Shown here: piece after piece, positions 13,143 to 55,495 of the stretch | How positions within the stretch are numbered: position 1 is the first letter of the stretch | Layout of the letters: each line of letters starts with the position of its first letter | IMG/VR virus record: IMGVR_UViG_3300031999_000008 | Location: 1-64,000 of that record | DNA: 64,000 nucleotides | Source: a virus | Reading direction: 5' to 3' (one strand) | Translations under genes and position numbers: made by a program | The notes under the pieces: model-generated | What the model saw: the letters and a program-made list of their open reading frames with translations, nothing else | Told to the model about the DNA's origin: nothing | Databases searched by the model: none

Positions 13143-13826
13143 ATGCGCGCTAATACTTCTGCAGACTCGCTATCGCGTTACTACAAAGAAGTCGAGTCGA
13201 CGCGAATGCTAACCGCAGAGGTAGAGCGCGAGCTCATCCAACGGTACAAAGAAACGAAAGACCCCAAGGCCCGCGACCTGATTGTGCAAGGTGCACTCCG
13301 GTACGTAATAGCTGAAGCTCGCAAGCATCCTCGAAGTAGGATAGAGCGATCCATTCTCGAAGACCTCATCGCTGCGGGGAATATAGGGCTCATACGAGCG
13401 CTCACTAAATTCAAACCCGAGGCGGGTACCCGCTTTCTGACATACGCTAGCTGGTGGGTACGCCACGAGATGCGTGAAGAAGGTCGACGTCTCGGTTTAG
13501 TACATGTGCCGGCGCATGCCATTGCTAAAGGCTTGCGCACGCCGCACACCACCGAGTACGTCGAGAATATCGTCGGAGACGCAGATACCAACTTAGAAGG
13601 CTATGCAGTCGATATCGAAATGCAGCAAAGCCTTCTAAAATTGTTCCAACTAACAGACCTCTCTATACGGGAGGTCTTCATCATTAAAACGTCGTTCGGC
13701 ATCCACACAGCGCCTAAGACGTTAAAACAAATAGGACGCGTATTGGAGATTACAGGTGAACGCGTGCGTCAGCTACGGGAAACAGCCGTTACCAAACTAC
13801 GCTCGGCTGCCTCCCGTTTTGTCTGA
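13143..13826 (+). CDS. Sigma70-family factor (RpoD/RpoS/RpoH type; regions 1.2, 2 and 4)
   Basis: DSLSRYYKEV; DLIAAGNIGLIRALTKF..RFLTYASWWVR; TLKQIG..ITGERVRQL. Confidence 0.92.
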   Translation: MRANTSADSLSRYYKEVESTRMLTAEVERELIQRYKETKDPKARDLIVQGALRYVIAEARKHPRSRIERSILEDLIAAGNIGLIRALTKFKPEAGTRFLTYASWWVRHEMREEGRRLGLVHVPAHAIAKGLRTPHTTEYVENIVGDADTNLEGYAVDIEMQQSLLKLFQLTDLSIREVFIIKTSFGIHTAPKTLKQIGRVLEITGERVRQLRETAVTKLRSAASRFV

Positions 13827-22614: not shown

Positions 22615-25600
22615 ATGCCGCCCAAATTACAGCCTTTATTAGCCGATGCCGACGAACGCCGTGAGCAGATTCGTCAGAAGACAATGGCAGGTCTCAACGC
22701 ATTGTTTCCTCTTGTAGGGAAAAACTCGACGGTCGAGATAAAGGATATTGGCATATCCAAAAAAGATTACTCTCAGGCAGAGCAAAAAGAAGCGCTGATG
22801 AGCGGGCGTACGCTACACGAAGCCATCCAAGGCACCATGGTTCTACGCGATAACCGTACGGGTAAAGTGTTAGACCAGCAAAAGCGAACGCTATTACACC
22901 TACCGTATTTTACTAAGCGTTACACGTTTATCGTTGGCGGTATTGAGTATGATATCCCGAGTCAGTTGCGCCTCAAGCCGGGTGTGTATACCCGCGAACG
23001 CAACAACGGTGAATACGAAGCAGCCTTCAATTTGAGCAAAGGTTCGAACTTTCGTCTCTCGATGGAACCGGAGTCAGGCCGGATTCATATGGAGTTAGGC
23101 GCTTCAAAGATCCCGTTATACTCGTTATTACGCTCACTCGGCGTGCCTGATACGGAAATCAAATCGTACTGGGGTACGGAGCTCAAGGACGTAAACGCCG
23201 CCTCGTCTAAGGACAAAGAAGAGATCATACTCAATAAAATACTGCTGAAAATTAAACGTCCCCGCGATGTACTGCCTACGACCTTAGAAGGTAAGCGCGA
23301 GTTCGTACATAATTACTTCGATAATACCGCGATGGATCCTGAGGTCAATGCGCGCACCCTCGGCAAGCCATTAGCGAAGGCCAACGCTACCGCTCTGCTT
23401 ACCGCTTCCAAGAAGCTCATAGACGTACAGAAAGGGTTGGCTGACGAAGACGACCGCGATAGTCTTGAATTCAAGACGATACATTCCGCGGATGACTTCT
23501 TTAAAGAGCGTTTGGATATCGATGCAAAGCGCACGATTGCCAAAAAGCTCACCATGCGTCTCAATCAGGCTAAAGAAAATGACCTGAAAACAATCATACC
23601 TAATTCAGTGTTTACCAAATCTATCAATTCATTCTTGACTAGTGCCGCTATTTCTTCGAGTCCTACCCAAATCAACCCCATGGAGATTATTGACCATGCG
23701 GGTAAAATAACGTCACTCGGCGAAGGCGGCATTACTAACGACCGCGCTGTGCCTTACGAATCGCGTAAGGTCCATAATACCCACTTTGGTATCCTCGATC
23801 CTGTACGTACCGCAGACGGTGCCAACGCGGGTATTGTGATCCACAGCAGTTTGTCAGGGCACCGCGACGCGGCTGGCAATATGTACGCGTATATGAAAGA
23901 TATGCGTACAGATAAAATGACGCACGTGCCCGTCATGACTTTAGCCAAAAGTGTTGTTGGGTTTTCTAACCAAGAACACCGTACGCACTGGGACGCGATT
24001 AAAGGCTCGGAAACGGTATCCGTACCGAAAAAAGATGTCGATTACATGATGCCGGATTCCATGTACATGCTGGGTCCCGCAACGTCATTGGTTCCCTTTC
24101 TAAATGGCATGCAGGGAAACCGCGCCATTATGGGATCTAAATTCCAGACACAGGCGCTGCCCTTAATCGAACGCGAAGCGCCGTACGTGCAAGCGATGGG
24201 CCCCTATAAGGGGGTCAGCATGGAAAAAGAATTAGCCATGCTAGTATTGCCCACATCCCCCGTACATGGGACCGTGGACCACATTGACGAACACTATATA
24301 CATATTCGTCCCGACAAAGAGAAGACCGCAGCGGCAGGTCCTACGCTTATCAAAGTGCCTTACAGCACGTATTTTCCATTAGCGTCTAAAACGTACCTAC
24401 ATGATGATCTCAACGTCAAAGCCGGCGACAAGGTAAAGAAAGACCAGACGCTAGCAGACTCGAATTTTACGAAGCACGGAGCGCTAGCGCTAGGTAAGAA
24501 CCTGTCCGTCGCGTACATGGCTTATTACGGCAAGAATTCTAACGACGCTGTTGTAATTAGCGAAGACGCGTCGAAAAAGCTGATCTCAGAACACATGTAT
24601 AAGGAATCTTTGCAAAAAGGCCCCGACGTAGTCTTGGGCAAAGCCAAATACGTTGCGTATTTCGGTGTCCAATACACTGAAGAACAGTTAAACAAACTGG
24701 ACGACGCGGGCGTAGCTAAGAAAGACGCGCACCTCAATAAAGGTGACCCTGTGATCCTGGGACTGCGTAAAGCCGCGCCTACGCCTGAGTCTGCGCTGTT
24801 AGGCAATTTTCATAAGTCGTTGGTGAGGCCGTACCGCGACGTAACCGTAACGTGGGACCATGATTCCCCCGGCGTGGTTCAGGACGTAGCCAATGTGGCA
24901 CGTCAGGTCATGGTCACCGTACGTACGCAAGAAGTAATGAAAGTGGGCGATAAACTCGCTAATCGGTTTGGTGGTAAAGGTGTTGTCTCCGAGATCGTCC
25001 CCAACGAACGCATGGTTAAGGACGAGAGCGGTAAGCCTATCGACGTACTATTTACTTCCGCGGGCATCGTTAGCCGTATTAACCCCAACCAAGTCGTGGA
25101 AGCCGCTCTCGGTAAAGTCGTTGAGAAGACGGGTAAGCCTATCGTCGTACCCCAGTTTAACCCTGAAGATAACGTTAAATACGCAAAGAGACTGCTTAAA
25201 GAACACGGTATTAAAGACAAAGAAACTGTGTACGACCCCGTTTCCGGCAAGCACATTCCCAACATATTCGTTGGGCGCTCATTTATACACAAGCTATTCA
25301 AGTCCACAGAGACTAACTATTCCGCACGCGGTGTGTCCGCCTATGACATCAATCTCCAGCCTACCAAAGGCGGGGATGAGGGTGCCAAAGGTCTCGGGCG
25401 TATGGAAATAAACGCACTTCTTGCGCATAATGCACGTAACGTTCTGAAAGAATCACTCACTCTAAAAAGCGAGAAAAGCGATGACTTCTGGCGTGCGTAC
25501 GAATTTGGCTTGCCGGCTCCGCCGCCTAAGACGCCATTTGTTTCTGAAAAATTCATGGCGATGCTTAAAGGGGCGGGGATAAATATACAGAAAGAAGGCC

Positions 25601-27009
25601 CGCACGTCACACTCGGGCCCATGACGGATAAGACTGTGAAAGAACTCTCTTCCGGCGCTTTAAGTGTTCCGAGTCTAGAGAAGTCCAAATCGTTCATGGT
25701 TAACGCCAAGAATATGAGCCCCGAAGACGGAGGGCTATTCGATCCTGCTCTAACCGGCGGCATGGGTGGCACGAAGTGGTCTCATATGGCGCTTAGTGAA
25801 CCTATCGTGAATCCTATTTTTGAGGATTCGGTGCGGCGTCTGTTGAGCATGTCGAAGAAACAACTGCGCGAAGAAATTGGTAAAGTAGGCGGAGGCGGGA
25901 TCAAGTCCCAGTTAAATAAACTGGACCTGACAAAGCTAGCCCAAGACTTGCGAGAACAGACCAAGTCTAAGCGGGGGTCTGATCTAGATAACGCAGTAAA
26001 AAAGCTCAAATATGTAGAAGCGTTAAAGGCCGGTGGTTTCTCGAAAGCTGGTGACGCATACACCTTGAGCAACTTAGCGGTAGTGCCTCCTGTGATGCGT
26101 CCTATTCTGCCGTCGAATAAGGGCAACGAGTTGCAGATATCCGATATCAATTATCTATATCGAGATGTCGGGCTTGCGAGCTCAGCACTCGCTAACAGTA
26201 AAGAAACTGAAGTGCCTTCGCTTATGCAAGAAGCCAGGCACCATTTGCATGACACGGTAGGCGCCCTATTCGGGGTACAAAAACCGACGAGTCCGCAGCT
26301 CTTGGGGCGTGAGGCAAAAGGCTTCATTGAACAGATCACAGGATCTGGCTCACCCAAAAGCGGTTTCTTGCACAAGAAAATTCTCAAGAGACAACAAGAC
26401 TTATCCGGTCGCGCTACAGCGACGCCTGACGCCACTCTCAACATCGACCAAATCGGTGTGCCAGAGGACATGCTCTGGACTACTTACTCTAAATTCATAA
26501 TGCGTGGGCTTATCAACCAAGGCTACAAACCGCTAGACGCACGGGAGATGATTGAAAATCGGCACGTAGCTGCACAGAACATTCTCAACAGAGAAATTAC
26601 ACAACGGCCCATGTTCGTGAACCGTGCACCGTCCCTCCACAAGCACAATGTGGTCGCAGCGTACCCTGTGTCTGTTCCGGGTAAGTCTCTCCGCGTCAAT
26701 CCGTTTATGGAAACCGGCATGAACCTGGATTACGACGGGGACGCTATGCAGCTCTACGTGCCCGTGTCGGAACCGGCTGTTGAAGAAGCGCGCAACCTGA
26801 CGCTCTCCAACCTGTTGTTCAGTGACAAGAATCCTAACGATCTCATGGTCTTTCCGCAGCACGAGGCCATTCTAGGTACTTACCTTGCGACGCACCACAA
26901 AGATGCCGGCCCTGTGCGTAAGTACAAAACAAAGAAAGAAGCGATGGCCGCTTACCATAGTGGGGAGATCACTATGAATACTCCTGTCGAAATACTAGAA
27001 TCGGCCTAG
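22615..27009 (+). CDS. rpoB-rpoC1: DNA-directed RNA polymerase, beta subunit fused to the N-terminal half of beta'
   Basis: beta motifs SQLRLKPGVY, GDKLANRFGGKG, SRIN, LGRMEINAL, GINI (~25590); beta' motifs VPPVMRP, SDINYLY, SGR, NRAPSLH and catalytic NLDYDGD (26722-26742). Confidence 0.95.
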   Translation: MPPKLQPLLADADERREQIRQKTMAGLNALFPLVGKNSTVEIKDIGISKKDYSQAEQKEALMSGRTLHEAIQGTMVLRDNRTGKVLDQQKRTLLHLPYFTKRYTFIVGGIEYDIPSQLRLKPGVYTRERNNGEYEAAFNLSKGSNFRLSMEPESGRIHMELGASKIPLYSLLRSLGVPDTEIKSYWGTELKDVNAASSKDKEEIILNKILLKIKRPRDVLPTTLEGKREFVHNYFDNTAMDPEVNARTLGKPLAKANATALLTASKKLIDVQKGLADEDDRDSLEFKTIHSADDFFKERLDIDAKRTIAKKLTMRLNQAKENDLKTIIPNSVFTKSINSFLTSAAISSSPTQINPMEIIDHAGKITSLGEGGITNDRAVPYESRKVHNTHFGILDPVRTADGANAGIVIHSSLSGHRDAAGNMYAYMKDMRTDKMTHVPVMTLAKSVVGFSNQEHRTHWDAIKGSETVSVPKKDVDYMMPDSMYMLGPATSLVPFLNGMQGNRAIMGSKFQTQALPLIEREAPYVQAMGPYKGVSMEKELAMLVLPTSPVHGTVDHIDEHYIHIRPDKEKTAAAGPTLIKVPYSTYFPLASKTYLHDDLNVKAGDKVKKDQTLADSNFTKHGALALGKNLSVAYMAYYGKNSNDAVVISEDASKKLISEHMYKESLQKGPDVVLGKAKYVAYFGVQYTEEQLNKLDDAGVAKKDAHLNKGDPVILGLRKAAPTPESALLGNFHKSLVRPYRDVTVTWDHDSPGVVQDVANVARQVMVTVRTQEVMKVGDKLANRFGGKGVVSEIVPNERMVKDESGKPIDVLFTSAGIVSRINPNQVVEAALGKVVEKTGKPIVVPQFNPEDNVKYAKRLLKEHGIKDKETVYDPVSGKHIPNIFVGRSFIHKLFKSTETNYSARGVSAYDINLQPTKGGDEGAKGLGRMEINALLAHNARNVLKESLTLKSEKSDDFWRAYEFGLPAPPPKTPFVSEKFMAMLKGAGINIQKEGPHVTLGPMTDKTVKELSSGALSVPSLEKSKSFMVNAKNMSPEDGGLFDPALTGGMGGTKWSHMALSEPIVNPIFEDSVRRLLSMSKKQLREEIGKVGGGGIKSQLNKLDLTKLAQDLREQTKSKRGSDLDNAVKKLKYVEALKAGGFSKAGDAYTLSNLAVVPPVMRPILPSNKGNELQISDINYLYRDVGLASSALANSKETEVPSLMQEARHHLHDTVGALFGVQKPTSPQLLGREAKGFIEQITGSGSPKSGFLHKKILKRQQDLSGRATATPDATLNIDQIGVPEDMLWTTYSKFIMRGLINQGYKPLDAREMIENRHVAAQNILNREITQRPMFVNRAPSLHKHNVVAAYPVSVPGKSLRVNPFMETGMNLDYDGDAMQLYVPVSEPAVEEARNLTLSNLLFSDKNPNDLMVFPQHEAILGTYLATHHKDAGPVRKYKTKKEAMAAYHSGEITMNTPVEILESA

Positions 27010-27022
27010 TATCGAGGCACCC

Positions 27023-27346
27023 ATGCCCTTCAAGAGTGAGAGACAAAGACGTCTGTTCCATGTCAAAGCCGACAAGGGTGAAATCCCCCAATCAACGGTT
27101 AGCGAGTGGGAACACGCTACTAAAAATAAGAAGGCCCTCCCTGAGCACGTAGCTAAGGAAGCCTACGCTCAAGGCAAAAGAGCAGCAGCTGTCAAAGTAG
27201 GCTTCATGGAAGACGTAGATCCTGAAGACTTACCTGCGCCGTTAAAGCATCGTAAAGAAAAATATCTACGTGAGTTGTATCGACTAAACGCAGCCACGGG
27301 ATTGCCTGCTGGCGGACTTATTTCGGAGGATTCCCGTGAAAGCTAA
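27023..27346 (+). CDS. Small virion-type protein (MPFKSERQRR start, internal leader-like motif)
   Basis: Contains KEAYAQGKRAAAVKVG. Confidence 0.7.
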   Translation: MPFKSERQRRLFHVKADKGEIPQSTVSEWEHATKNKKALPEHVAKEAYAQGKRAAAVKVGFMEDVDPEDLPAPLKHRKEKYLRELYRLNAATGLPAGGLISEDSRES

Positions 27347-27803
27347 GACGTCTATGTTCGCAGTTGTGGCTATGGCCTCGTTTCTGTTGGCTGGTTGTGA
27401 CTTCCTAAAAACAACGACGGGCCAAGCCATCATGGACTACGTACTTCAAGCGGTTGTTCTTATCGTGACGCCTGTCGTGTTACTGCTCGCTAAACGCGTT
27501 GTACAGATTGTCGAACAAAAGACAGGTTTAGCCGCTTCAGCGCACCAGCTAGCCCTCGTAGACGACGCTGTGTATAAAGGCGTTGCCTACGCGGAAGAGC
27601 AGGGCCGTAAAGCCTTTAAAGTCAACGAGCCTATTCCTGACGGGAATATGAAGCGGCAAATGGCAACTGAATTTGCATTGGATATGGTAAAGAACCACAA
27701 TGCAGCCGAAATTAGCCGCGACTACCTACTGAAGATGGTCGAAGCACACGTAAACCTTGCCCGGGATCCCGCCGATAAGAAGGTAGCCAATGCGCCTGTA
27801 TAA
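27336..27803 (+). CDS. Holin-like membrane protein (LL-H type) with lipobox
   Basis: Signal peptide ending LAGC, a TM helix, and V..AEEQ..G..K motif. Confidence 0.55.
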   Translation: MKAKTSMFAVVAMASFLLAGCDFLKTTTGQAIMDYVLQAVVLIVTPVVLLLAKRVVQIVEQKTGLAASAHQLALVDDAVYKGVAYAEEQGRKAFKVNEPIPDGNMKRQMATEFALDMVKNHNAAEISRDYLLKMVEAHVNLARDPADKKVANAPV

Positions 27804-28032
27804 CCATGGCCGTAGAGCGCTACTCATGAAGCTAGGGCTCGACGCCGAAGCGTTCACCCAAATGGTTCAACAAGACGATACTGCTGACTTCGTAAATCAA
27901 AATACGACGTCTAAAGACATGAACCAGAATCTGGATAAAGCGCCTGCATGGGGTAGCCAGAGCTCCATGGAAGCTGGCGACGCAGGCACTCGCAATTACC
28001 AGATGGGTCTTCCTCGCGCAGGCGCGGTGTAG
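27790..28032 (+). CDS. Small leader-bearing cargo protein
   Basis: N-terminus YNHGRRALLMKLG. Confidence 0.65.
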   Translation: MRLYNHGRRALLMKLGLDAEAFTQMVQQDDTADFVNQNTTSKDMNQNLDKAPAWGSQSSMEAGDAGTRNYQMGLPRAGAV

Positions 28033-29843
28033 TGTCTAAAACGCTGGGTCAGTATTTGTTGGATGGGGCGATACCCGTTGGGTACCGCCCTAAAGACGTA
28101 TATTCTAAGTCCGATCTACGTAGCAATATGCTGCGATTAGCTAAGGATGATCCAGCGCGTTACACAAAAACAATTACAGAAGTAAAGCGTTTAGGCGATG
28201 AATTCGCCACTAATTTAGGTATATCAGTAGGCCTTGATGATATCGAGCCCTTGTATAAAACACGCGACGCCATTACCAAGCCCGCGTTGGCTCGCGTTAA
28301 AAAAGCCAAGACCAAAACAGAGCGGCAAGACATTATCTCGGAAACTCAGGATAAACTCCTAGAGTACGCCATGAAGCACCCAGGAACCATGGGTGAAATG
28401 GCACGGTCCGGCGCACGGGGTAGCTCGCTCCAACTCATGCGTGCCGTAGGCGCACCCGCCGCAAGTAGCGACGAAAAAGATGATCTACAAGGTTGGCTGA
28501 CAACGCACAGTTATGCGGAAGGCCTTCGTCCTTCAGAGTGGTGGGCCAATAACCGTGAAGCCCGAATGGCTGCGGTAAAGACTCAGAATGAGGTCATGGA
28601 GCCCGGCGATTTATCTAAGATTTTGATCAACAATACCAGTGATCAAATCGTGACTATATCGGATTGTGGCACCAAAAACGGCCTACTTATAGCGCTTACG
28701 GATTCACATATTCTAGATCGCTTTACGGCACGCACCGAACACGGACTGCCTCGCAATACGCTCATGACTCCCCGGGTTGTAAGCACGCTACAGCAGCAAA
28801 AAGTCGAACGCATGTTGATGCGGTCACCTATGACTTGCGAAGCGCAGCACGGCATCTGCCAACATTGTGCAGGTTTGAGTACGCTCGGCGTCATTAACAA
28901 GATCGGTGAAAATTTAGGCATTCGTGCAAGCCAGTCGTTAGGGGAACCCCTTACGCAACTCGCGCTGAATGCTAAACACGGCGTCCGTCTTTCAGGTGCT
29001 AACCCGCTAGAAACCACCGGGCTAGAGGGCTTTCGCAAGCTGCTAGAATCCCCTGCGTCCTTCAAGAATAAAGCGACGCTCGCTCCTGAAGACGGCGTCG
29101 TTACCGCGATTTCAAAAGCACCTCAGGGTGGCTATTACGTCACGGTCAACGAAAGTAAGACGTACGTGTCCCAGGGGTTAAAACCTACTGTCTCTATAGG
29201 CACGACCGTCCATGCTGGCGACGTTCTATCTGAGGGGACGCCGCGCCCCGATGAGGTTGTGCATTACAAAGGCCTCGGCGCAGGCCGTGCCTACCTCGTG
29301 AATAAGCTCGGCGGCATCTACAAAGATAGCAAAATAAACGTAGATCGTCGGCATTTTGAAGTACTCGCGAAGTCTACGCTCAACCACGTACGTATTGAGG
29401 ACGTGGACGATGCTGACTCTGCGGCACATGGTCTCGTACGTGGTGATGTAATCGACTACAACCGTTATCGTAATATCGTGGGCGACAAGACACAGCACAC
29501 GGATATAGATAACGCTGAAGGTAAGTACCTCGGTGAGGGTGTATTGCACCATTTGGCAGGTACGCAGATTACGCAGCCAATGCTAGCTGAAATAAAAGAT
29601 GCCGGATTTACTAAGGTACGCACGGCTAGCCAGGCGCCTGTTGTGTCTGCGGTCATCGCGCCTGCGACGCGTAATCCTCTGTTGAATCCCGACTGGCTTG
29701 TTCGGATGGGACATCGTTATTTGAAGCAGTCCCTTTTAGAGGGAGCCCAAAAGGGACAAACTTCTAACATTCACGGCACGAGTCCGGTCCCCGGTCTCGT
29801 ATTCAGCGGGGAATTCGGTGAGGGTGAAAATGGCCAATACTAA
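28032..29843 (+). CDS. rpoC2: RNA polymerase beta' C-terminal half (bridge helix, trigger loop, Zn site)
   Basis: GISVGLDD, SGARGS, SYAEGL, DCGT..RSPMTC..GICQHC, SQSLGEPLTQL..H, DRRHFEV. Confidence 0.93.
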   Translation: MSKTLGQYLLDGAIPVGYRPKDVYSKSDLRSNMLRLAKDDPARYTKTITEVKRLGDEFATNLGISVGLDDIEPLYKTRDAITKPALARVKKAKTKTERQDIISETQDKLLEYAMKHPGTMGEMARSGARGSSLQLMRAVGAPAASSDEKDDLQGWLTTHSYAEGLRPSEWWANNREARMAAVKTQNEVMEPGDLSKILINNTSDQIVTISDCGTKNGLLIALTDSHILDRFTARTEHGLPRNTLMTPRVVSTLQQQKVERMLMRSPMTCEAQHGICQHCAGLSTLGVINKIGENLGIRASQSLGEPLTQLALNAKHGVRLSGANPLETTGLEGFRKLLESPASFKNKATLAPEDGVVTAISKAPQGGYYVTVNESKTYVSQGLKPTVSIGTTVHAGDVLSEGTPRPDEVVHYKGLGAGRAYLVNKLGGIYKDSKINVDRRHFEVLAKSTLNHVRIEDVDDADSAAHGLVRGDVIDYNRYRNIVGDKTQHTDIDNAEGKYLGEGVLHHLAGTQITQPMLAEIKDAGFTKVRTASQAPVVSAVIAPATRNPLLNPDWLVRMGHRYLKQSLLEGAQKGQTSNIHGTSPVPGLVFSGEFGEGENGQY

Positions 29844-30222
29844 TTATTACGAAGCGGGGCGTAGCGCCGCGCGAGCCCGTTTTGAGAAAACAGCTTTGAT
29901 CGGCGCAGCCATTGGTGCCATGAAGGCCAAAGAAATGAATCCCAAAGATCCTCAACTCTTTCCCGGTGCTATTGCGGGTGAGTTAGGTGGTTTGGGTGGC
30001 ATGGCGCTCGGACAAACCGTAGGGGCTGTAGGCGGAGGCTTAGTGGGAGCTGCCGCAGGTATTCCACTGAGCATCCTGCTCAAAAAACCCGAACTACTTT
30101 CACATCTCGCAAACGCCGGTGCAATGGTGGGTATGGTAGGCGGCGGCATCGGGGGCTTTGTGCACGGCGCTAGGCGCTTGCCCGAAGCGGTCCTTAAAGA
30201 TACCCGTAAGCCAAAGAAGTAA
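29830..30222 (+). CDS. Leader-bearing glycine-zipper protein (cargo allele A)
   Basis: ATG overlaps the RNAP stop; MANTNYYEAGRSAARARFEKTA followed by GxxxG repeats. Confidence 0.75.
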   Translation: MANTNYYEAGRSAARARFEKTALIGAAIGAMKAKEMNPKDPQLFPGAIAGELGGLGGMALGQTVGAVGGGLVGAAAGIPLSILLKKPELLSHLANAGAMVGMVGGGIGGFVHGARRLPEAVLKDTRKPKK

Positions 30223-30252
30223 AACCGAGTATGTTCCTGAACACAACAGTTA

Positions 30253-30346
30253 TTGGGCTAGACAATCAACCAGCCTATGATTAACGTGCGGCCTCTAGAG
30301 ACGCAGAGAGCTACCATGTCGAATTCACCGTTTTTTAAGCGAGCCC
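30253..30346 (+). repeat. Copy 1 of ~95-bp repeat (promoter plus 5' end of gene 31155)
   Basis: Near-identical to 31092-31185; contains TTGGGC-N17-TATGAT and ATGTCGAATTCACCG. Confidence 0.9.
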
Positions 30347-30404
30347 TGTGCTCGGTCTATTCTTCAGCAGTGAATTCGGAGAGGGGACCGATGGCAAATA
30401 TTGA
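30342..30404 (+). pseudogene. Fossil 3' end of a homologous RNAP beta'-C gene
   Basis: Translates SPVLGLFFSSEFGEGTDGKY* versus SPVPGLVFSGEFGEGENGQY* at 29781-29843. Confidence 0.85.
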
Positions 30405-31062
30405 CTATATCGCCGGTTCCGACGCTGCTGCGTATACTTTTTTAAAAACGGCAGTGACGCCGGCTTGGATTAAAGATCGTCTACGTAATGTCAGGTACGC
30501 TCTAAATGCGGATGAAGTCGCCGAGGTAGGACGTCCCGCTTTGACGTCAATCGCTAAGCGGCTTAACAACTCTATGAAATCAAATGACTCTGTGTTAAAT
30601 AATCTCGAACCACTTGTACAACACGAGTACAAACAAAATAGGTTTAAGGTTATTATGGGTACCAATGCTCCGGGTACGTACCCACATCATCAGGGTGATC
30701 ATACTAACTATACAAACTTTTTAAATAGTGCCGGCCGGCGTACTGGCGTATTGGGAACAGCGCCCGTTACGCCCCACGGCGAATACGTTTACGAACGTAT
30801 GCCGAGTCTATACGCTTGGGATAAACGTAAGACACTGAATATGCGACTCGAACAATTGCGACGGCAACTGGATGCTAGCGTGGCGCAGAGTGCGCCTAAG
30901 CTGAATAAACCGCTACCACCAACGCCGGCCGCAACACCCGCAGTAGCAGGTCCTCTGCGTAATCCGTTTAAACTAAGAGCGCAGTTAACGCCAAGTCCGT
31001 ACGCGGACGGCCGTTTTAATCACACGCGCCCCCAAATTCCACAACCCGTGCCCTACCGCTAG
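30391..31062 (+). CDS. Leader-bearing protein of unknown function (cargo allele B)
   Basis: MANIDYIAGSDAAAYTFLKTA leader, GGAG RBS; in-frame upstream ATG at 30316. Confidence 0.7.
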   Translation: MANIDYIAGSDAAAYTFLKTAVTPAWIKDRLRNVRYALNADEVAEVGRPALTSIAKRLNNSMKSNDSVLNNLEPLVQHEYKQNRFKVIMGTNAPGTYPHHQGDHTNYTNFLNSAGRRTGVLGTAPVTPHGEYVYERMPSLYAWDKRKTLNMRLEQLRRQLDASVAQSAPKLNKPLPPTPAATPAVAGPLRNPFKLRAQLTPSPYADGRFNHTRPQIPQPVPYR

Positions 31063-31091
31063 ACGTAAAACCAGTGCGACTACGAAACACC

Positions 31092-31120
31092 TTGGACTAG
31101 ACAATCAACCAGCCTATGAT
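31092..31120 (+). promoter_or_regulatory. Late-type sigma70-like promoter
   Basis: TTGGAC-N17-TATGAT. Confidence 0.65.
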
Positions 31121-31154
31121 TAACGCGATGCCTCTAGAGGAGCAGAGATCTACC

Positions 31155-32423
31155 ATGTCGAATTCACCGCTTTTTAAGCGAGCCTTTGTTCGCGGACTGA
31201 ACGCCGAGCTCATCCGCCAGGGCACCGTTGTGTATCCTTCTAAGGAAGCAGCGGATGCGTCGGCCGACTATGTCGCGGATCAATCAGGCATGCCCGACCC
31301 CTATTTTGAGGGCGAAGCGCTTGACATCAAGACGGCGGGCACTCTCTGCGAGTACCTCATCAAAGCGGCTGAATATCAGTGCCAGCAAGCCGGGGATAAG
31401 TACAACCCGACCGTGACTAAGACGGCGCAGGAAAGCACGCCTGTGGCTGTTGCCACTCACGACGCCTGGGCGTTGATGGAAAAGGCTGCATCGGAGACGG
31501 GCTCTCTTGTTGAAGGCGGCAAAGATCCGAACACAGAGCCGGACGCCGCTCGCGACAACGCCGAAGCCGCACTGGATATGAAGAATCGTCCCCAGGGTTA
31601 TGCGCACCTCGGCGAAAAAGGCGTTGGCAATTACGAGGATCCCAGCGAGGGAACCGTAGGCCACCAAGCGAAGCATCCGATGGCTCCCGGCGCTACGGGA
31701 CACGATACAAATTCGCTCAACAAGGGTGCGTCTCTGTCGGAGATCGTCCGTCGCGTTGGCACCAAGACGGCTGCCGGTACGGGCACGCTCGTTACTGGCG
31801 GCACGCAACCCAACACGTTGGCGGCTGCGGCGCAGCATGAGTCGTTGGCTGCGCTTGAGCAGAAAAATCGTCCCGAAGGCTACGCTCACCGCGGTGAGAA
31901 GGCTGTCGGAACCACGGAGTTTAAGATTCCGTCGAGCGCTGTGATGGGTCATGAGCAACCGCACCCGCACGTTCCGGGTGCCACTGCATCGGGCAGCAAC
32001 TCGATCATTGCGCAGACCAAGAACGCTTTCGATCAACTCTTCGCCAAGACGGCAGAGCAGGTTGTTCCGTATCTCCCCGAGAATATGGACGACAACATGA
32101 AGGTTGGCCACGTCCGCGCAATGCTCGGATTAGAGACGTCTGAGCGCGCCGATTACCTCGGCAATCTGTACTCCTCGTTGGGTGCCCAGAAGGAAGCTGC
32201 GGAGTCGGTGCGGGATCATTTCCGTAAGTCGGCGGCGCATGCCGAGCCCGATGGTGATGAGTGTGAGTCGACCGATAAAGCCGCCCCCATGTTTCCTCCC
32301 GCGATGAAGGCGCATGAGAAGACGGAATCCAAGAAGGAAGAAGCTGCTGAAAAGGAAGCTTCTGCGGCGCCTACGCGAGCCCTCACAGGCCTGCGCGACC
32401 GGCTTGCTAACCTGAGTCGCTAA
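31155..32423 (+). CDS. Inner-head polyprotein with two ~78-aa repeats and many K-x-A sites
   Basis: Repeats KNRPQGYAHLGEK / KNRPEGYAHRGEK; strong codon bias; the listed ATG at 31116 lies in the -10 box. Confidence 0.8.
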   Translation: MSNSPLFKRAFVRGLNAELIRQGTVVYPSKEAADASADYVADQSGMPDPYFEGEALDIKTAGTLCEYLIKAAEYQCQQAGDKYNPTVTKTAQESTPVAVATHDAWALMEKAASETGSLVEGGKDPNTEPDAARDNAEAALDMKNRPQGYAHLGEKGVGNYEDPSEGTVGHQAKHPMAPGATGHDTNSLNKGASLSEIVRRVGTKTAAGTGTLVTGGTQPNTLAAAAQHESLAALEQKNRPEGYAHRGEKAVGTTEFKIPSSAVMGHEQPHPHVPGATASGSNSIIAQTKNAFDQLFAKTAEQVVPYLPENMDDNMKVGHVRAMLGLETSERADYLGNLYSSLGAQKEAAESVRDHFRKSAAHAEPDGDECESTDKAAPMFPPAMKAHEKTESKKEEAAEKEASAAPTRALTGLRDRLANLSR

Positions 32424-39006: not shown

Positions 39007-40860
39007 ATGTCTTACTCCAAGATCATCACATTAGACGACCATTTCTCGACCGGGGAACCCACGGTCCAGCTGGTATCTACGTGGGGTCGTGGAGGACGGC
39101 TGTTGCGGGAAGCAACTTCGCTGCACAAGATTGCCAGCACGCACAGCCCCGCTGTTGAGTATATCAAGACCGTCGCGCCTGAGCCCGGCAAGACTATTGT
39201 TCTTGTTATTGGCCTTGGTGACAATGAGACCTACGGTGCCAATCGTAATGGTGATGGTTTCCCGTCCCAGCCCGTAAAAGGCAAAATCGCTGCCGACGAA
39301 GTGCTTACTAAGCACTATCAGTCTTACGATAAAGCGCATGTATTTGAGCATCATGTAAACAGTGACCCTGCCAAAGCGATCGGACGCGTAAAGAAAGCTT
39401 TCTGGAATCCCCACATGCGTCGTGTGGAAATGGTTGAGGACTTCGATAATGCGAAGGCTCCCCATTTATTAGAAAAGATTGCCAGTGGTGAATATCCTGC
39501 GAAAAGTATGGGTTGCAGGATCAAGTACGACGTCTGCAACAATTGCGGTAACAAAGCAAAGACACGTGCTGATTATTGCGACCATCTGAAGTTCGCAATG
39601 AGCCGTATTGACCCGCACTCGGGTGTCCAGAATTCGGCCTTGAATCCCAGCCCGGATTTCTTCGACAGCTCTTGGGTCATTCGCCCTGCAGATCGTACGG
39701 GTTTCATGATGAAGAAGGTCGCCAAGGAACACCCGTACGAAATTCGTATGGGCAGTTTCGAACTCGGCGATATCATCAATGACTTATCCAGCAAATCGGC
39801 TGAATTAGGCAAAGCCGCGGATATTGAGAAAGTAATGCAAGGGGAACCTACTGCATCTGTCTCAAATCTAAAGCCTAAAGACGCTCAACTCGTAAAGAAA
39901 TACGTGAGCGAATGCGCTGATTCCTCCGATAAAGAGCCTGATCATACGCGTGCTGTAAGCATTATGATCAGTTACAAACCCTCAGAGGCTTTGGAAAGTG
40001 CTGACGAGTTAGGGCTTCCCCTCGGTCTAAAAGATATTATTCAATACTTCTTGGGTAAGATCGCTCCCGAGACAGCGGGTGCCGATAAGAAGACGTTAAA
40101 GTCGGCTAATGACCATTTGGGCCTGATCTATTCCGTCTACAGTAAGTATCCTCGTTTCTACAACGAGCTCGTTAAAGAAGCGGGCTTGGACGGAACAAGC
40201 ACGTCCAACCCCACGCTTCTAAAGAAATTGGCTGCTGAAAGCCCCACCACGGATTACTTGAAGCGTCAGGTCATGCCTGAAGCAATGTATCCCGGTCGGG
40301 CTAAAACAGATATGGTCTCGTGGACGGACCCGAACTCGGGTCAACGCTACCAGACAAATTACGGTGCGGTAGAGCAAACACACGATCCATTGATTCGAGA
40401 AGGTCTTGCACATAAGGCGCTGGCAGGCGGCGCCTTGTTAGGGACTGGCGCACTTTTAGGTGGGGCAGCTTTCGCAGCGCGTAATACCCGTATACCTAAG
40501 GCCCTAACGATTGGCGGAGGTCTCGTAGGTGCAGGTTTAGGCGCAGTAGGTATTCATAACCTGCTAGGGCCTACACCAATCGCCGGACCCAAGGTCGTAA
40601 CCGACCAGGGCGAGACTATCTCGGGCTGGACTCCGATGACTCCCAAGCATGCTGAAACCACGCTAGCTAACTTCCCGTACATCGTGAAGCGTGCGAATGA
40701 AGCTCCAACTGCTATGAATCCGCAATACGTAAACTGGTTCATTGATCAATTGAAGTTCGCTGAGATTCATGATGAACTAAGCCCGTATATCGGACCTACG
40801 CTCGACCTAGAAAAGGTTGCGCAAGCCCTCGGTACGTCGATATTAAAGCGCACCGAGTAA
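39007..40860 (+). CDS. Prohead maturation protease (HK97/assemblin clan) with Zn insert and C-terminal glycine zipper
   Basis: NRNGDGF, FEHHVN (His), SMGC (Ser), CxxC..CDH, FFDSSWV..PAD; located upstream of the capsid gene. Confidence 0.8.
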   Translation: MSYSKIITLDDHFSTGEPTVQLVSTWGRGGRLLREATSLHKIASTHSPAVEYIKTVAPEPGKTIVLVIGLGDNETYGANRNGDGFPSQPVKGKIAADEVLTKHYQSYDKAHVFEHHVNSDPAKAIGRVKKAFWNPHMRRVEMVEDFDNAKAPHLLEKIASGEYPAKSMGCRIKYDVCNNCGNKAKTRADYCDHLKFAMSRIDPHSGVQNSALNPSPDFFDSSWVIRPADRTGFMMKKVAKEHPYEIRMGSFELGDIINDLSSKSAELGKAADIEKVMQGEPTASVSNLKPKDAQLVKKYVSECADSSDKEPDHTRAVSIMISYKPSEALESADELGLPLGLKDIIQYFLGKIAPETAGADKKTLKSANDHLGLIYSVYSKYPRFYNELVKEAGLDGTSTSNPTLLKKLAAESPTTDYLKRQVMPEAMYPGRAKTDMVSWTDPNSGQRYQTNYGAVEQTHDPLIREGLAHKALAGGALLGTGALLGGAAFAARNTRIPKALTIGGGLVGAGLGAVGIHNLLGPTPIAGPKVVTDQGETISGWTPMTPKHAETTLANFPYIVKRANEAPTAMNPQYVNWFIDQLKFAEIHDELSPYIGPTLDLEKVAQALGTSILKRTE

Positions 40861-40863
40861 AGC

Positions 40864-40892
40864 TTGTATTATCAAAGACTACCCCCTAAGAT
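40864..40892 (+). promoter_or_regulatory. Late-type sigma70-like promoter (capsid operon)
   Basis: TTGTAT-N17-TAAGAT, followed by TAAC as at 31115. Confidence 0.7.
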
Positions 40893-40919
40893 TAACGACG
40901 AAACCCTTGAGAGGGATCT

Positions 40920-54357: not shown

Positions 54358-55140
54358 ATGCCTATCGGTATTGCACGTAATTTAACCACATGGAAGTTCC
54401 AAGACACGTACGTGGAACGCGTGATGGATAACGCCGCATATACGTCGGCCCATCCTGATGACACGCTGGTGTTGGCAGGGCCCTCACGTAGCACCGGAGC
54501 TCAGGGGAGCGATACCACAGGCTCGGGGTCCCTACTTGCTATTGGCATGATGCAGAATTTAAACATCAGTCAAGTAAAATCGACAACGCCTGTAATGGCG
54601 ATCGGTTCAGGGCGCTCGTTCTTCGTGAGCGGCAAAGCGCAGGGTAACGGCAGTATTGCGCGTCTGTTCGTCAATGGACGCAATCTACTCCGCGTCCTTT
54701 ACCATAACGCACAGTCAAGTGATATAAACGTCGGCGCATTCGATGACAAACCGGCGGATCATACGACGTCACAGTTCTACATCAACCTGGACTCTGAACT
54801 TTACTACATCCCCTTTGGTCTTGCCGCCGTCTTCCGTACCAAGGCCCATGACGTTGTGGGCGGCTTTTACGCCGAATTAACCATGATTCAGTCTTACAAT
54901 ATTAGCATTCAAGCCGGTGCTAATATGATTGCTGAACAGGTCTCTTTCATGTTTGACCGTCTCATGCCGTACAGTGTTGCGAGCGTGTCGGCCACTGGTC
55001 AAGTTCCCCGGAGTACCCTGGATGCAATTGCAGGCTTCGTAGACCCGGATCTGTCCACCGCCGCCAATTCGGGAAGCCTCACTGAGAACACAATCGGTGA
55101 CTTTAGTAACGGCATTCCCACGAACTTTGTAAGTGCCTAA
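54358..55140 (+). CDS. Tail tube protein
   Basis: IGMMQNLNISQ..PVMAIGS pattern, follows the sheath. Confidence 0.75.
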   Translation: MPIGIARNLTTWKFQDTYVERVMDNAAYTSAHPDDTLVLAGPSRSTGAQGSDTTGSGSLLAIGMMQNLNISQVKSTTPVMAIGSGRSFFVSGKAQGNGSIARLFVNGRNLLRVLYHNAQSSDINVGAFDDKPADHTTSQFYINLDSELYYIPFGLAAVFRTKAHDVVGGFYAELTMIQSYNISIQAGANMIAEQVSFMFDRLMPYSVASVSATGQVPRSTLDAIAGFVDPDLSTAANSGSLTENTIGDFSNGIPTNFVSA

Positions 55141-55495
55141 CACCCCCGCCTATACGCACGGCCGCAGACACGCTCAGATTAAACTGGGCGTGTTTGGTGC
55201 TATGCTCGGTGGTGCGGGTGTTGGGGGTCTTGCGGGTTATGTCCTGGCTCCTGAAAATAGAAAAGGGCATGGCGTTATGTATGGCGCTGCCCTTGGTGGT
55301 CTAGGGGCGGGATTGGGCTCCGCAGCAGCCCCTTACATGCATGCCGCCGAGAATCCGGGACTACTTGCACGTACCGGAGTGTCTACGGCGAGTACAGGCC
55401 TCGGTACGCTCGCGGGTATTGGTGCAACGGGGGCTCTTGTAGATAAAACGAACGTACCCACCTCAGATGATCCGTACCACTATCGCTCCAGATAG
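55133..55495 (+). CDS. Leader-bearing glycine-zipper protein
   Basis: AYTHGRRHAQIKLG followed by three Gly-rich hydrophobic helices. Confidence 0.7.
   Translation: MPNTPAYTHGRRHAQIKLGVFGAMLGGAGVGGLAGYVLAPENRKGHGVMYGAALGGLGAGLGSAAAPYMHAAENPGLLARTGVSTASTGLGTLAGIGATGALVDKTNVPTSDDPYHYRSR

Follow-up and report, generated by a model that had tools for sequence, protein, structure and literature searches.

The locus lies on a contig of an uncultured jumbo phage, a 90.9-kb fragment from a single metagenomic assembly that is classed as linear and about 51% complete. The analysed window is a 64,000-nt stretch of this contig, and the features discussed here are collected in Table 1. Searching the phage collection at the DNA level gave no match, the nearest relative returned when viral contigs were scanned with a profile was no closer than 66%, and no Rfam family was detected between positions 27000 and 33000. 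Relatives were compared as a set of 80 non-redundant related loci; an earlier scan had taken in 63 loci.

Table 1. Features of the slot between the RNA polymerase gene and the first head-module gene.
Feature	Coordinates	Strand	Basis
RNAP β′ C-terminal subunit gene (603 aa); conserved gene to the left of the slot	28032–29843	+	Pfam RNA_pol_Rpb1_5
True RNAP 3′ tail, last 20 codons and TAA	29781–29843	+	Direct reading; kept in relatives
Cargo A, basic glycine-zipper protein of 130 aa with N-terminal tag	29830–30222	+	Relatives at 44–84% identity
Leader copy 1: predicted promoter, 5′UTR, vestigial ATG 30316, 10 codons of gene 31155	30253–30345	+	Repeat of 31092–31184
Novel joint CGAGCC	30340–30345	+	Direct reading
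Fossil RNAP 3′ tail	30342–30404	+	SPVLGLFFSSEFGEGTDGKY, then TGA; similarity to the true tail
Cargo B, basic hydrophilic orphan protein of 223 aa	30391–31062	+	Best codon likelihood of six frames
Leader copy 2: putatively functional promoter/leader, first 10 codons of gene 31155	31092–31184	+	Repeat; conserved hexamers
Gene 31155, first head-module gene, right conserved flank of the slot	31155–32423	+	Orthologues follow the slot in relatives

Two conserved genes enclose a variable interval, which we call the slot. The gene on the left belongs to the C-terminal β′ class of multisubunit RNA polymerases (RNAPs), with a match to Pfam PF04998 (E 1.3e-17, above the curated cut-off) tblastn matches to phage RNAP β′ genes, and a syntenic position beside a β–β′N gene that is conserved; its orthologues occur in more than 100 loci at 27–79% amino-acid identity. 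Downstream of gene 31155, on the right, a match to a head maturation protease family lies at 39007–40860. The phage also has a sigma factor gene of its own, at 13143–13826. The order of RNAP gene, slot and gene 31155 is conserved across the 80 loci. To our knowledge, Salmonella phage Arash is the only cultured relative of this clade, and a distant one. Homologues of RNAP β and β′ are among the most abundant virion proteins of that phage (PMC10585845).

The initial annotation had read the slot as two tandem cassettes, in the order RNAP tail, cargo A, leader, second RNAP tail, cargo B, leader and gene 31155, and every element was found where it had been placed. The true RNAP tail translates as SPVPGLVFSGEFGEGENGQY followed by the stop codon, and cargo A begins inside it, overprinting the final 14 nt. 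The fossil tail aligns with the last 20 RNAP codons only. Without gaps, the two tails agree at 45 of 63 nucleotides and, as had been counted before, at 14 of 20 residues, with their stop codons in register. The fossil tail is unique in the genome: the next best 63-mer match to the RNAP tail on either strand of the 90.9 kb reaches 32/63 (mean 15.8, s.d. 3.5). No second tail is present in the other non-redundant related loci, where the best score was just 33/63 nt; the first 63-locus scan had likewise given at best 32/63 nt and 8/20 residues.

The leader is also repeated, with 85 of 93 positions identical between the copies and an exact stretch of 29 nt in common. These are the only two copies in the 90.9 kb (the runner-up reaches 43/93 over the full unit and 21/34 over the promoter core). 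Copy 1 contains a σ70-like −35 hexamer TTGGGC (30253–30258), a 17-nt spacer and a −10 hexamer TATGAT (30276–30281), and it encodes MSNSPFFKRA as does the beginning of gene 31155. The −35 and −10 hexamers are conserved in two relatives, L005 and L006, and are kept with their spacer in copy 1. Five of the eight differences between the copies are derived in copy 1, all of them downstream of the −10 hexamer at sites invariant in copy 2, L005 and L006. A promoter scan listed only copy 2 (9/12 σ70-like, 31093–31120), its total number of sites being equal to chance. In copy 1, GAGGAG has changed to GAGACG, but this site lies 12 nt from the ATG, and we do not claim that a lost Shine-Dalgarno sequence killed the duplicated start; because the proximal AGAGAG persists, ATG 30316 is not called dead. 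We found no convincing terminator stem-loop in the leader cassette, and no terminator-like site on the + strand between cargo B and leader copy 2. A terminator-like hairpin at the joint (30340–30354) has a 5-bp stem, and it was not interpreted since such sites are as frequent as chance.

Similarity to the leader stops, and similarity to the RNAP tail begins, at the CGAGCC joint, which had been proposed as a microhomology. The motif is indeed common to codons 9–10 of gene 31155 (31179–31184) and to the start of the captured RNAP tail. To its left stand 10 codons of gene 31155 and to its right 21 codons of an RNAP gene, which makes it an illegitimate joint over a few bases. The true RNAP tail reads CGAGTCC at 29779–29785 against CGAGCC at the joint, which puts the microhomology at an estimated 4–7 nt. 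At the joint, AAGCGAGCC / CTGTGCTCGG, at most 7 nt are common to the two parental contexts. This number bears on the question of whether a metagenome assembler could have stitched an A-carrying and a B-carrying strain together in tandem. The origin of the contig from one assembly, its linear and incomplete state, the frequency of strain mixtures and the 29-nt exact stretch between the leaders would all be compatible with such a chimera. However, a graph assembler switches at shared k-mers, which are available only inside the leader, and a switch there would yield one cargo gene and not two. A joint with so few shared nucleotides is not the product of a k-mer assembler and must exist in the reads. 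Leader copy 1 has substitutions of its own, hence it is no repeated path through a single sequence. An assembly chimera is accordingly very improbable.

Both cargo genes were described initially as being overprinted on an RNAP stop region, and their ATGs each lie 11 nt before the real or the fossil RNAP stop in the +1 frame. The overlap of the cargo A start with the RNAP stop implies translational coupling. For cargo B, the fossil tail provides the Shine-Dalgarno-like GGAGAGGGG together with the ATG. Read from the duplicated ATG 30316, the frame of cargo B also runs without a stop across the fossil tail, and initiation at that ATG would give a protein of 248 aa.

Cargo A (pI 10.1, hydrophobic segment at residues 66–84) has relatives in P0003 (84% identity), P0004 (66%) and the slot gene of L005 (44%), the last with the same overprint, and shares N-terminal homology with gene 55133 (hhalign P 6e-5). 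Scanning the cargo A family alignment against viral contigs returned nothing. Membership of cargo A in a widespread slot family of about 210 aa was rejected as hhalign gave no match to the main slot-family profile; a lone weak BLASTP link from the A-like protein of L005 to L046 lies in a glycine-rich region and is probably compositional. For cargo B (pI 10.1, no membrane segment), searches of 5.8 billion and of 1.84 billion proteins yielded no true homologue, a word-based search returning B alone. Two matches from exhaustive phmmer searches were long, repetitive, low-complexity proteins and were dismissed as compositional. The AlphaFold2 model of B had a mean pLDDT of 41.7 and was unusable, and ESM Atlas hits scored below 0.9 with TM ≤0.40. 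That B is a diverged member of the 210-aa slot family (L011, L012, L014, L021 and others) is unproven; hhalign aligned just the N-terminal 36 columns at E 0.14, and against an 11-member profile it aligned nothing. Neither cargo protein matched a PHROG or Pfam family at E up to 0.01, and Pfam at E up to 5 produced sub-threshold noise only, for cargo B a sub-threshold coiled-coil match.

The payloads of A and B, described at the outset as unrelated, show no similarity (BLASTP E 0.45), whereas residues 5–26 of the two proteins are significantly alike, with a score of 36 where the 346 other ORF N-termini reach 28 at most (shuffle P 0.0006). The canonical form of this tag motif occurs seven times in the genome against 0.9 expected, five times at N-termini. 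P0004 of the A family matches a tag profile made without the A and B families (E 7.8e-5); the N-terminus of cargo B does not match the canonical tag profile and resembles only the tag variant of A. Slot genes of the relatives have Y..G...AL...GL.K.A in common, and K-x-A follows the tag in most slot proteins. As to the role of the cargo, the most likely reading is that both proteins bear the tag, are produced late and might be packaged in the virion.

Both slot borders could be placed in 33 of the related loci. Of these, 11 have an empty slot between conserved flanks, and in the other 22 it holds genes from at least four unrelated families; L006, L007, L008 and L002 have empty slots, and other relatives hold unrelated genes there. 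In L014 and L019, which are about 83% identical in nucleotides, the slot gene forms a clean 601-nt indel, with a remnant of about 25 nt in L019. The first slot gene normally starts atop the RNAP stop codon, often with a short conserved N-terminal tag. The interval between the RNAP β′-C gene and gene 31155 is a hotspot for gain and loss of small accessory genes in this clade, as the suggestion of an exchangeable slot had anticipated. L005, at 79% RNAP identity the closest relative, carries a single A-like gene that overlaps the RNAP stop by the same 14 nt, and it shares the leader; the flank after this gene matches the flank upstream of leader copy 1, not of copy 2.

These comparisons also bear on the idea that A and B are long-standing partners in an old, selected operon, with the leader and tail-like repeats being regulatory and not a scar. 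Such a history is favoured by the frame open from the duplicated ATG into B and by the intact hexamers of copy 1, and two-gene slots do exist in L029 and L031. However, the A–B pair, the second tail and the repeated leader were found in none of the related loci examined, a complete 180-kb relative lacks any member of the A family, B is without a homologue in any library searched, and leader copy 1 carries derived changes at otherwise invariant sites. Internal direct repeats were absent from the other multi-gene slots (L029, L110, L038). A fixed two-gene arrangement in all relatives, which the initial annotation had regarded as contrary to its reading, was seen in none. We consider an old operon extremely unlikely.

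The same architecture could result from a tandem duplication within the genome, in which a unit of RNAP tail, A, and leader with 10 codons was repeated through CGAGCC and then diverged or had its payload replaced by B. Such a duplication fits the geometry exactly, with each unit starting with a tail and ending with a leader, and it would explain the homologous N-terminal tags and the leader copies that are still 91% identical. The pattern of divergence argues against it. By direct count, the dead tail has kept 71% nucleotide identity and the coding tag right after the stop about 48%, the opposite of what local decay would leave. Differences between the fossil and the true tail favour the third RNAP codon position (5/3/10 at positions 1/2/3; P 0.043 for the bias over 18 differences), as they do between tails of real RNAP orthologues (2/0/11 and 3/3/16). 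The payloads, of 130 and 223 aa, are dissimilar in BLASTP and neither fits the main slot-family profile in hhalign, a change too great for the time implied by 9% divergence of the leaders. The fall in identity at the stop and the third-position bias together point to capture from a diverged, functional RNAP gene, the origin first proposed for the tail, and make a local duplication improbable. At positions that are invariant elsewhere, the fossil tail also shows non-conservative changes (P to L, V to F), and some decay after capture must therefore be assumed. Its unusual ending, EFGEGTDGKY before the stop, is the real C-terminus of an RNAP β′-C homologue in one viral contig, L087, identified by a back-translated pattern search. 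L087 is ruled out as the donor by the distant relationship of its RNAP and by DNA differences at the majority of synonymous sites.

We consider it likely, with a probability of roughly 0.7, that out-of-register recombination with a related but diverged phage stacked A and B in tandem. The ancestor would have had the RNAP gene, cargo A, the leader and gene 31155, as the closest sampled relative still does. At the microhomology CGAG.CC of 4–7 nt, codon 10 of gene 31155 would have been joined to the final 21 codons of a donor's RNAP gene; we infer that the donor was a related, diverged phage and that its own tagged gene, B, differed from A. Unequal crossing-over during mixed infection or, equally, a circularised donor fragment integrating at the leader could have led to the same product. 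The outcome would be tandem cassettes in which B retains its own ribosome-binding site and ATG within a dead RNAP tail and now lies downstream of a copy of the head-gene promoter, itself predicted. The leaders differ by 9% and the tails by 29%, a discrepancy that calls for gene conversion, for a leader under strong constraint or for a second crossover within it. Neither the search with the fossil-ending pattern nor the profile scan of viral contigs found a donor phage carrying B. The model predicts a B homologue directly after an RNAP β′-C gene ending near FSSEFGEGTDGKY and a stop codon, with its ATG 11 nt before that stop.

Modular shuffling mediated by PeSLs is known from the hyperplastic regions of T4-type phages (Arbiol et al. 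2010, PMC2839356; Comeau et al. 2014, PMC4122927). As in that system, a conserved regulatory cassette of about 100 bp with a σ70-like promoter, predicted here, occurs in direct repeat on both sides of an orphan gene; in the present case 93-nt repeats (85/93) enclose the fossil tail and B. If these repeats, whose starts at 30253 and 31092 lie 839 nt apart, recombined, the gene would be lost or freed as a circle; the inserted gene brings or gains its own promoter (predicted here), and gene presence varies among close relatives. The PeSL cassette combines a strong σ70-like promoter with a stem-loop terminator, whereas no terminator stem-loop was found here. Also unlike PeSLs, the cassette exists in two copies in 90.9 kb and not as a dispersed family, it takes in the first 10 codons of a head gene, and its left joint is illegitimate and lies inside coding sequence, leaving a fossil gene end.

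A second parallel is the polymorphic internal-protein (IP) locus of T-even phages, which, as summarised in a later source, encodes unrelated proteins with a common capsid targeting sequence (Repoila et al. 1994, as cited in PMC3012670). Like the IP locus in that summary, the slot is a fixed locus, variable among relatives, in a late, virion-related gene context; A and B are unrelated basic payloads with only a short N-terminal sequence in common, and the conserved 5′ parts could act as homology arms. Unlike the locus as summarised there, the first cargo gene starts atop the stop codon of a polymerase gene, and PHROG and Pfam revealed no sequence relation to T4 internal proteins or their targeting sequence. 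A tag that steers proteins into the prohead and is then removed by the prohead protease would complete the parallel; the pointers to this are indirect, namely the protease-family match at 39007–40860, the K-x-A behind the tag of most slot proteins and the virion RNAP of phage Arash.

Hendrix, Juhala and colleagues reportedly described novel joints and 'morons' that arise by illegitimate recombination in lambdoid and other tailed phages. The present joint resembles these in its short microhomology near a gene border, in the leftover pieces of flanking genes and in an extra gene with its own, predicted, promoter between conserved genes. Morons are bracketed by a promoter and a terminator of their own, and here no terminator-like site was found behind the inserted gene. 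Moreover, the insert has the tag of the resident gene and the end of the flanking gene, thereby resembling a slot allele added in tandem and not a foreign gene from elsewhere.

A wider interpretation, which we regard as doubtful, is that the slot is an effector locus of a large uncultured clade of RNAP-packaging jumbo phages, in which a portable tag (Y..G...AL..LGL, often followed by K-x-A) would send unrelated payloads into the head for injection. If so, homology arms for cassette exchange would be provided to one side by the RNAP tail plus the tag and to the other by the head-gene leader, B would be an injected protein of recent capture, such as a counter-defence factor, and the slot would be a functional parallel of the T4 internal-protein locus, unrelated to it in sequence.

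In summary, the locus is a new example of known phage modular shuffling, clear and not unprecedented. Since modular shuffling, morons and novel joints are well established, what it contributes is a clean example and a lead rather than a new mechanism. Recombination intermediates of gene exchange between phages are rarely preserved, and here one joint still displays both parents, a foreign polymerase gene by its last codons and the resident head gene by its first. The accessory genes of this clade would then move as cassettes between the RNAP 3′ end and the head-gene leader, and misaligned exchange could stack alleles and give the newcomer a strong, predicted promoter. The slot offers a defined hotspot in more than 100 related contigs in which to seek fast-changing, possibly injected proteins, and the short N-terminal tag is a candidate packaging signal.

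All elements that the initial annotation had listed between the RNAP beta'-C gene and gene 31155, the first gene of the head module, were found in the sequence (see table). In this interval, the slot, two cargo genes A and B stand in tandem. The true and fossil RNAP tails are identical at 45/63 nucleotides without gaps and at 14/20 residues, with the stop codons in register; the runner-up 63-mer match to the tail on both strands of the 90.9-kb record was 32 (mean 15.8, s.d. 3.5). The leader, a 93-nt segment comprising a sigma70-like promoter, the 5'UTR, and the ATG and ten first codons of gene 31155, occurs in two copies (85/93 identical), and no third copy was found in the genome, where the next best match reached 43/93. 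Leader likeness ends and RNAP-tail likeness begins at CGAGCC, which is also found as codons 9–10 of gene 31155. The true tail has CGAGTCC there, putting the length of the junction microhomology proposed earlier at 4–7 nt. The ATG codons of both cargo genes (ATGGCCAATACTAA and ATGGCAAATATTGA) lie 11 nt 5' of the RNAP stop in the +1 frame, thereby overprinting the real stop region in A and the fossil one in B. We also noticed an ORF absent from the initial annotation, which runs without a stop from the duplicated ATG (30316) across the fossil tail into cargo B.

Features of the slot and its genomic setting
Feature	Position	Strand	Remark
RNAP beta-beta'N fusion gene	22615-27009		
Three small genes	27023-28032		
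RNAP beta'-C gene	28032-29843		Pfam Rpb1 domain 5, E 1.3e-17
True RNAP tail	29781-29843		reads SPVPGLVFSGEFGEGENGQY*
Cargo A	29830-30222		
Leader copy 1	30253-30345		
ORF into cargo B	30277-31062		
CGAGCC joint	30340-30345		
Fossil RNAP tail	30342-30404		reads SPVLGLFFSSEFGEGTDGKY* in its own frame
Cargo B	30391-31062		
Leader copy 2	31092-31184		
Gene 31155	31155-32423		
Head maturation protease family match	39007-40860		in head module, downstream of RNAP genes
Site 5' of gene 40920	40864-40897		TTGTAT, 17 nt, TAAGATTAACG
Glycine-zipper protein gene	55133-55495		in tail/neck region
Motif genes in window	27790, 45548, 55133	+	
Motif genes in genome G000 (this virus)	67185, 73716	+	

The window covers the initial 64 kb of an IMG/VR virus record that is 90,903 bp long and is classed as linear, at a CheckV completeness of about 51%; its multisubunit RNAP is split over two genes. 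No DNA-level match to the window was found among the phages of the INPHARED collection; the nearest cultured relatives, Salmonella phage Arash and some Vibrio phages, are very distant, with about 28–30% amino-acid identity. Three small genes separate the two RNAP genes: one is holin-like (Pfam Phage_holin_6_1, below the curated cut-off), two contain a Y..G...A..K.G motif, and the gene content of this interval is unlike that of the related loci L002 and L003.

Cargo A encodes 130 residues (pI 10.1) with glycine-zipper hydrophobic segments and has relatives of 84%, 66%, and 44% identity. Cargo B encodes a hydrophilic protein of 223 residues (pI 10.1) with a proline-rich C-terminus; its codon likelihood, −4.09 in frame and at best −4.47 in the five alternative frames, indicates that it is coding. 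Searches of 5.8 billion clustered proteins and of 1.84 billion representatives gave no real homologue of it, and its predicted structure was unusable (pLDDT 41.7). The two payloads have no overall relationship, as initially proposed.

The fossil tail could have arisen by local duplication and decay or by capture from a diverged functional RNAP gene, and we favour capture on three grounds: the codon-position bias, the drop in identity at the stop, and a viable ending found elsewhere. The 18 differences between the tails fall 5/3/10 over RNAP codon positions 1/2/3 (binomial P 0.043), next to 2/0/11 and 3/3/16 in true orthologous tails. RNAP-frame positions correspond to 3/1/2 in the now-open frame, so present-day coding does not account for the bias. 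Nucleotide identity is 71% in the fossil tail, which has no polymerase function now, and by direct count about 48% just 3' of the stop, in the cargo N-terminus that is still coding. The dead tail is thus better kept than the coding N-terminus, the reverse of what local duplication predicts. The unusual fossil ending, EFGEGTDGKY*, is the true C-terminus of a distant RNAP beta'-C homologue on contig L087 and hence a viable polymerase ending. These observations back the diverged-phage source put forward initially. The fossil tail matches the window's own tail at 45/63, that of the closest relative L005 at 44/63, and that of L006 at 36/63 positions, which would place the donor in the same subclade. 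Some decay of the fossil sequence since capture is suggested by its P-to-L and V-to-F changes, which are non-conservative and affect residues that do not vary elsewhere. The homologue on L087 (11890-13716) ends in GSEFGEGTDGKY*, its last 10 residues being those of the fossil. We rejected this contig as the donor, its RNAP being only distantly related. The next gene there begins on the RNAP stop (TAATG), and a RESGFN stretch within it may recall lytic transglycosylases.

Scans with the beta'-C protein and a four-sequence alignment yielded over 100 loci on contigs of viral or metagenome origin, in which the gene order beta'-C, slot, 31155, 32424, 32704 is kept down to about 38% RNAP identity. 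A complete RNAP end was present in 80 non-redundant loci, and for 33 of these the two borders of the slot could be located; 11 slots are empty (61–102 nt) and 22 filled (404–1312 nt), the window's being the longest of the 33. L005 (79% RNAP identity) has a single A-like gene, 44% identical to cargo A, with the same 14-nt overprint on the RNAP stop and the same leader 3' of it. The slots of L006 (73%), L007, L008, and L002 (about 66%) are empty, and no A-family gene occurs anywhere in the complete 180-kb genome containing L002. All-against-all BLASTP grouped the slot genes into a large family of about 12 members (L011, L012, L014, L021, L029, L031, L038, and others), a second family (L022, L026, L030, L081), the A family, orphan B, and further singletons; profile comparisons linked neither cargo to the large family. 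The slot is polymorphic among relatives, in support of the exchangeability first proposed, with conserved flanks, variable content, and no fixed two-gene layout. L014 (4898-5498) and L019 (2521-2600), about 83% identical in nucleotides on either flank, are distinguished by a clean 601-nt indel corresponding exactly to the slot gene, of which about 25 nt of the 3' end persist in L019. Empty slots can thus form by deletion, and scars exist elsewhere in the clade; the L019 remnant adds another scar to this slot, of independent origin and left by deletion. No second RNAP tail was found at any other locus (best 33/63 nt; 32/63 nt and 8/20 residues in a first scan of 63 loci), nor were internal repeats in other multi-gene slots.

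In the leader alignment with L005 and L006, TTGG at −35 and CTATGATTAACG at −10 are invariant, with a 17-nt spacer. The putative promoter call relies on this conservation across relatives, not on the consensus scan, which listed copy 2 alone (9/12) with a total site count equal to chance. Of eight differences between the copies, five are derived in copy 1, one in copy 2, and two are ambiguous. All five lie 3' of the −10, at sites that do not vary among the other three sequences, which fits a copy 1 whose untranslated and coding parts are less constrained but whose promoter is retained. The 25–30 nt 5' of copy 1 resemble the L005 flank after its A-like gene and those 5' of copy 2 do not, which fits cargo A with copy 1 as the resident arrangement. 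The site 5' of gene 40920 has an extended −10 (TA.GATTAACG) in common with the leader promoter, which suggests a small late-promoter family.

The out-of-register recombination with a diverged phage proposed initially is supported by these data. In the most probable history, a resident phage (RNAP, A, leader, head gene) and a donor relative (RNAP', B, leader', head gene') would have undergone a misaligned exchange that fused the head gene, at codon 10, to the final 21 codons of RNAP'. Cargo B would thereby come to lie 3' of a head-gene promoter copy, retaining a putative ribosome-binding sequence, GGAGAGGGG, and its ATG, both placed within the conserved codons for EFGEG in the dead tail. The duplicated ATG, if used, would add 25 N-terminal residues to B, which would be lost if the tag were cleaved. 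Divergence between the leader copies is 9%, against 29% between the tails. Each of four processes would account for this mismatch: another, homologous crossover within the leader, a circular fragment integrating there, gene conversion, or a strongly constrained leader. The 93-nt repeats would permit deletion of the 839-nt unit, implying that B is recent or held by selection. A chimeric assembly of strains is very improbable, because a k-mer graph changes strain only within shared k-mers, here inside the leader, and would yield one cargo, whereas the actual joint has at most 7 nt common to both parental contexts and leader copy 1 carries private substitutions.

Over residues 5–26, which lie past the part forced by the RNAP overlap, A and B align with a BLOSUM62 score of 36 and 9/20 identities; the N-termini of the genome's 346 other ORFs scored no higher than 28 (shuffle P 0.0006). 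First slot genes of relatives have a like N-terminus, Y..G...AL...GL followed by K-x-A. Among the ORFs of the genome the strict motif was counted seven times, where shuffles gave 0.9 ± 1.0, and five of the occurrences lie within the first 8 residues. As [YFW]..G...[AL]...G[LFMVI], typically YxxGxxxALxKLGL, it opens at least five otherwise unrelated genes. When the A and B families were left out of the profile, it recovered P0004, the 66% relative of cargo A, at E 7.8e-5 and cargo A itself weakly (E 0.15), whereas cargo B was missed. The N-terminus of A also aligns with that of gene 55133 (hhalign P 6e-5), a protein of 120 residues in which, as in cargo A, a glycine zipper follows the tag; its residues 1–28 are homologous to the A family. 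The tag is thus a genuine recurring module, of which cargo B has A's variant only. The Arash homologues of the RNAP genes at 28032-29843 and 22615-27009, gp216 and gp206, are among the most abundant virion proteins of that phage by mass spectrometry (PMC10585845), so RNAP of the window's clade is probably packaged in the particle. This abundance, the head-module context, and the protease family match are indirect points in favour of what we think is the most likely role of the tag, which would be to direct late proteins into the particle, perhaps with its cleavage at K-x-A. The more novel reading, in which the slot is a hotspot of tagged effectors, we consider unlikely.

The slot layout works like the PeSL-flanked orphan genes in T4-type hyperplastic regions (PMC2839356), although the cassette here is not a dispersed family and no terminator was found in it. 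A further parallel is the polymorphic internal-protein locus of T-even phages, in which a capsid targeting sequence is common to unrelated proteins (PMC3012670); there is no sequence relationship to that locus, and packaging is putative here. The joint is a classical illegitimate novel joint. The initial observation is thus confirmed and its interpretation supported, and the locus presents a clean new instance of an already known process, in a phage clade not studied before.
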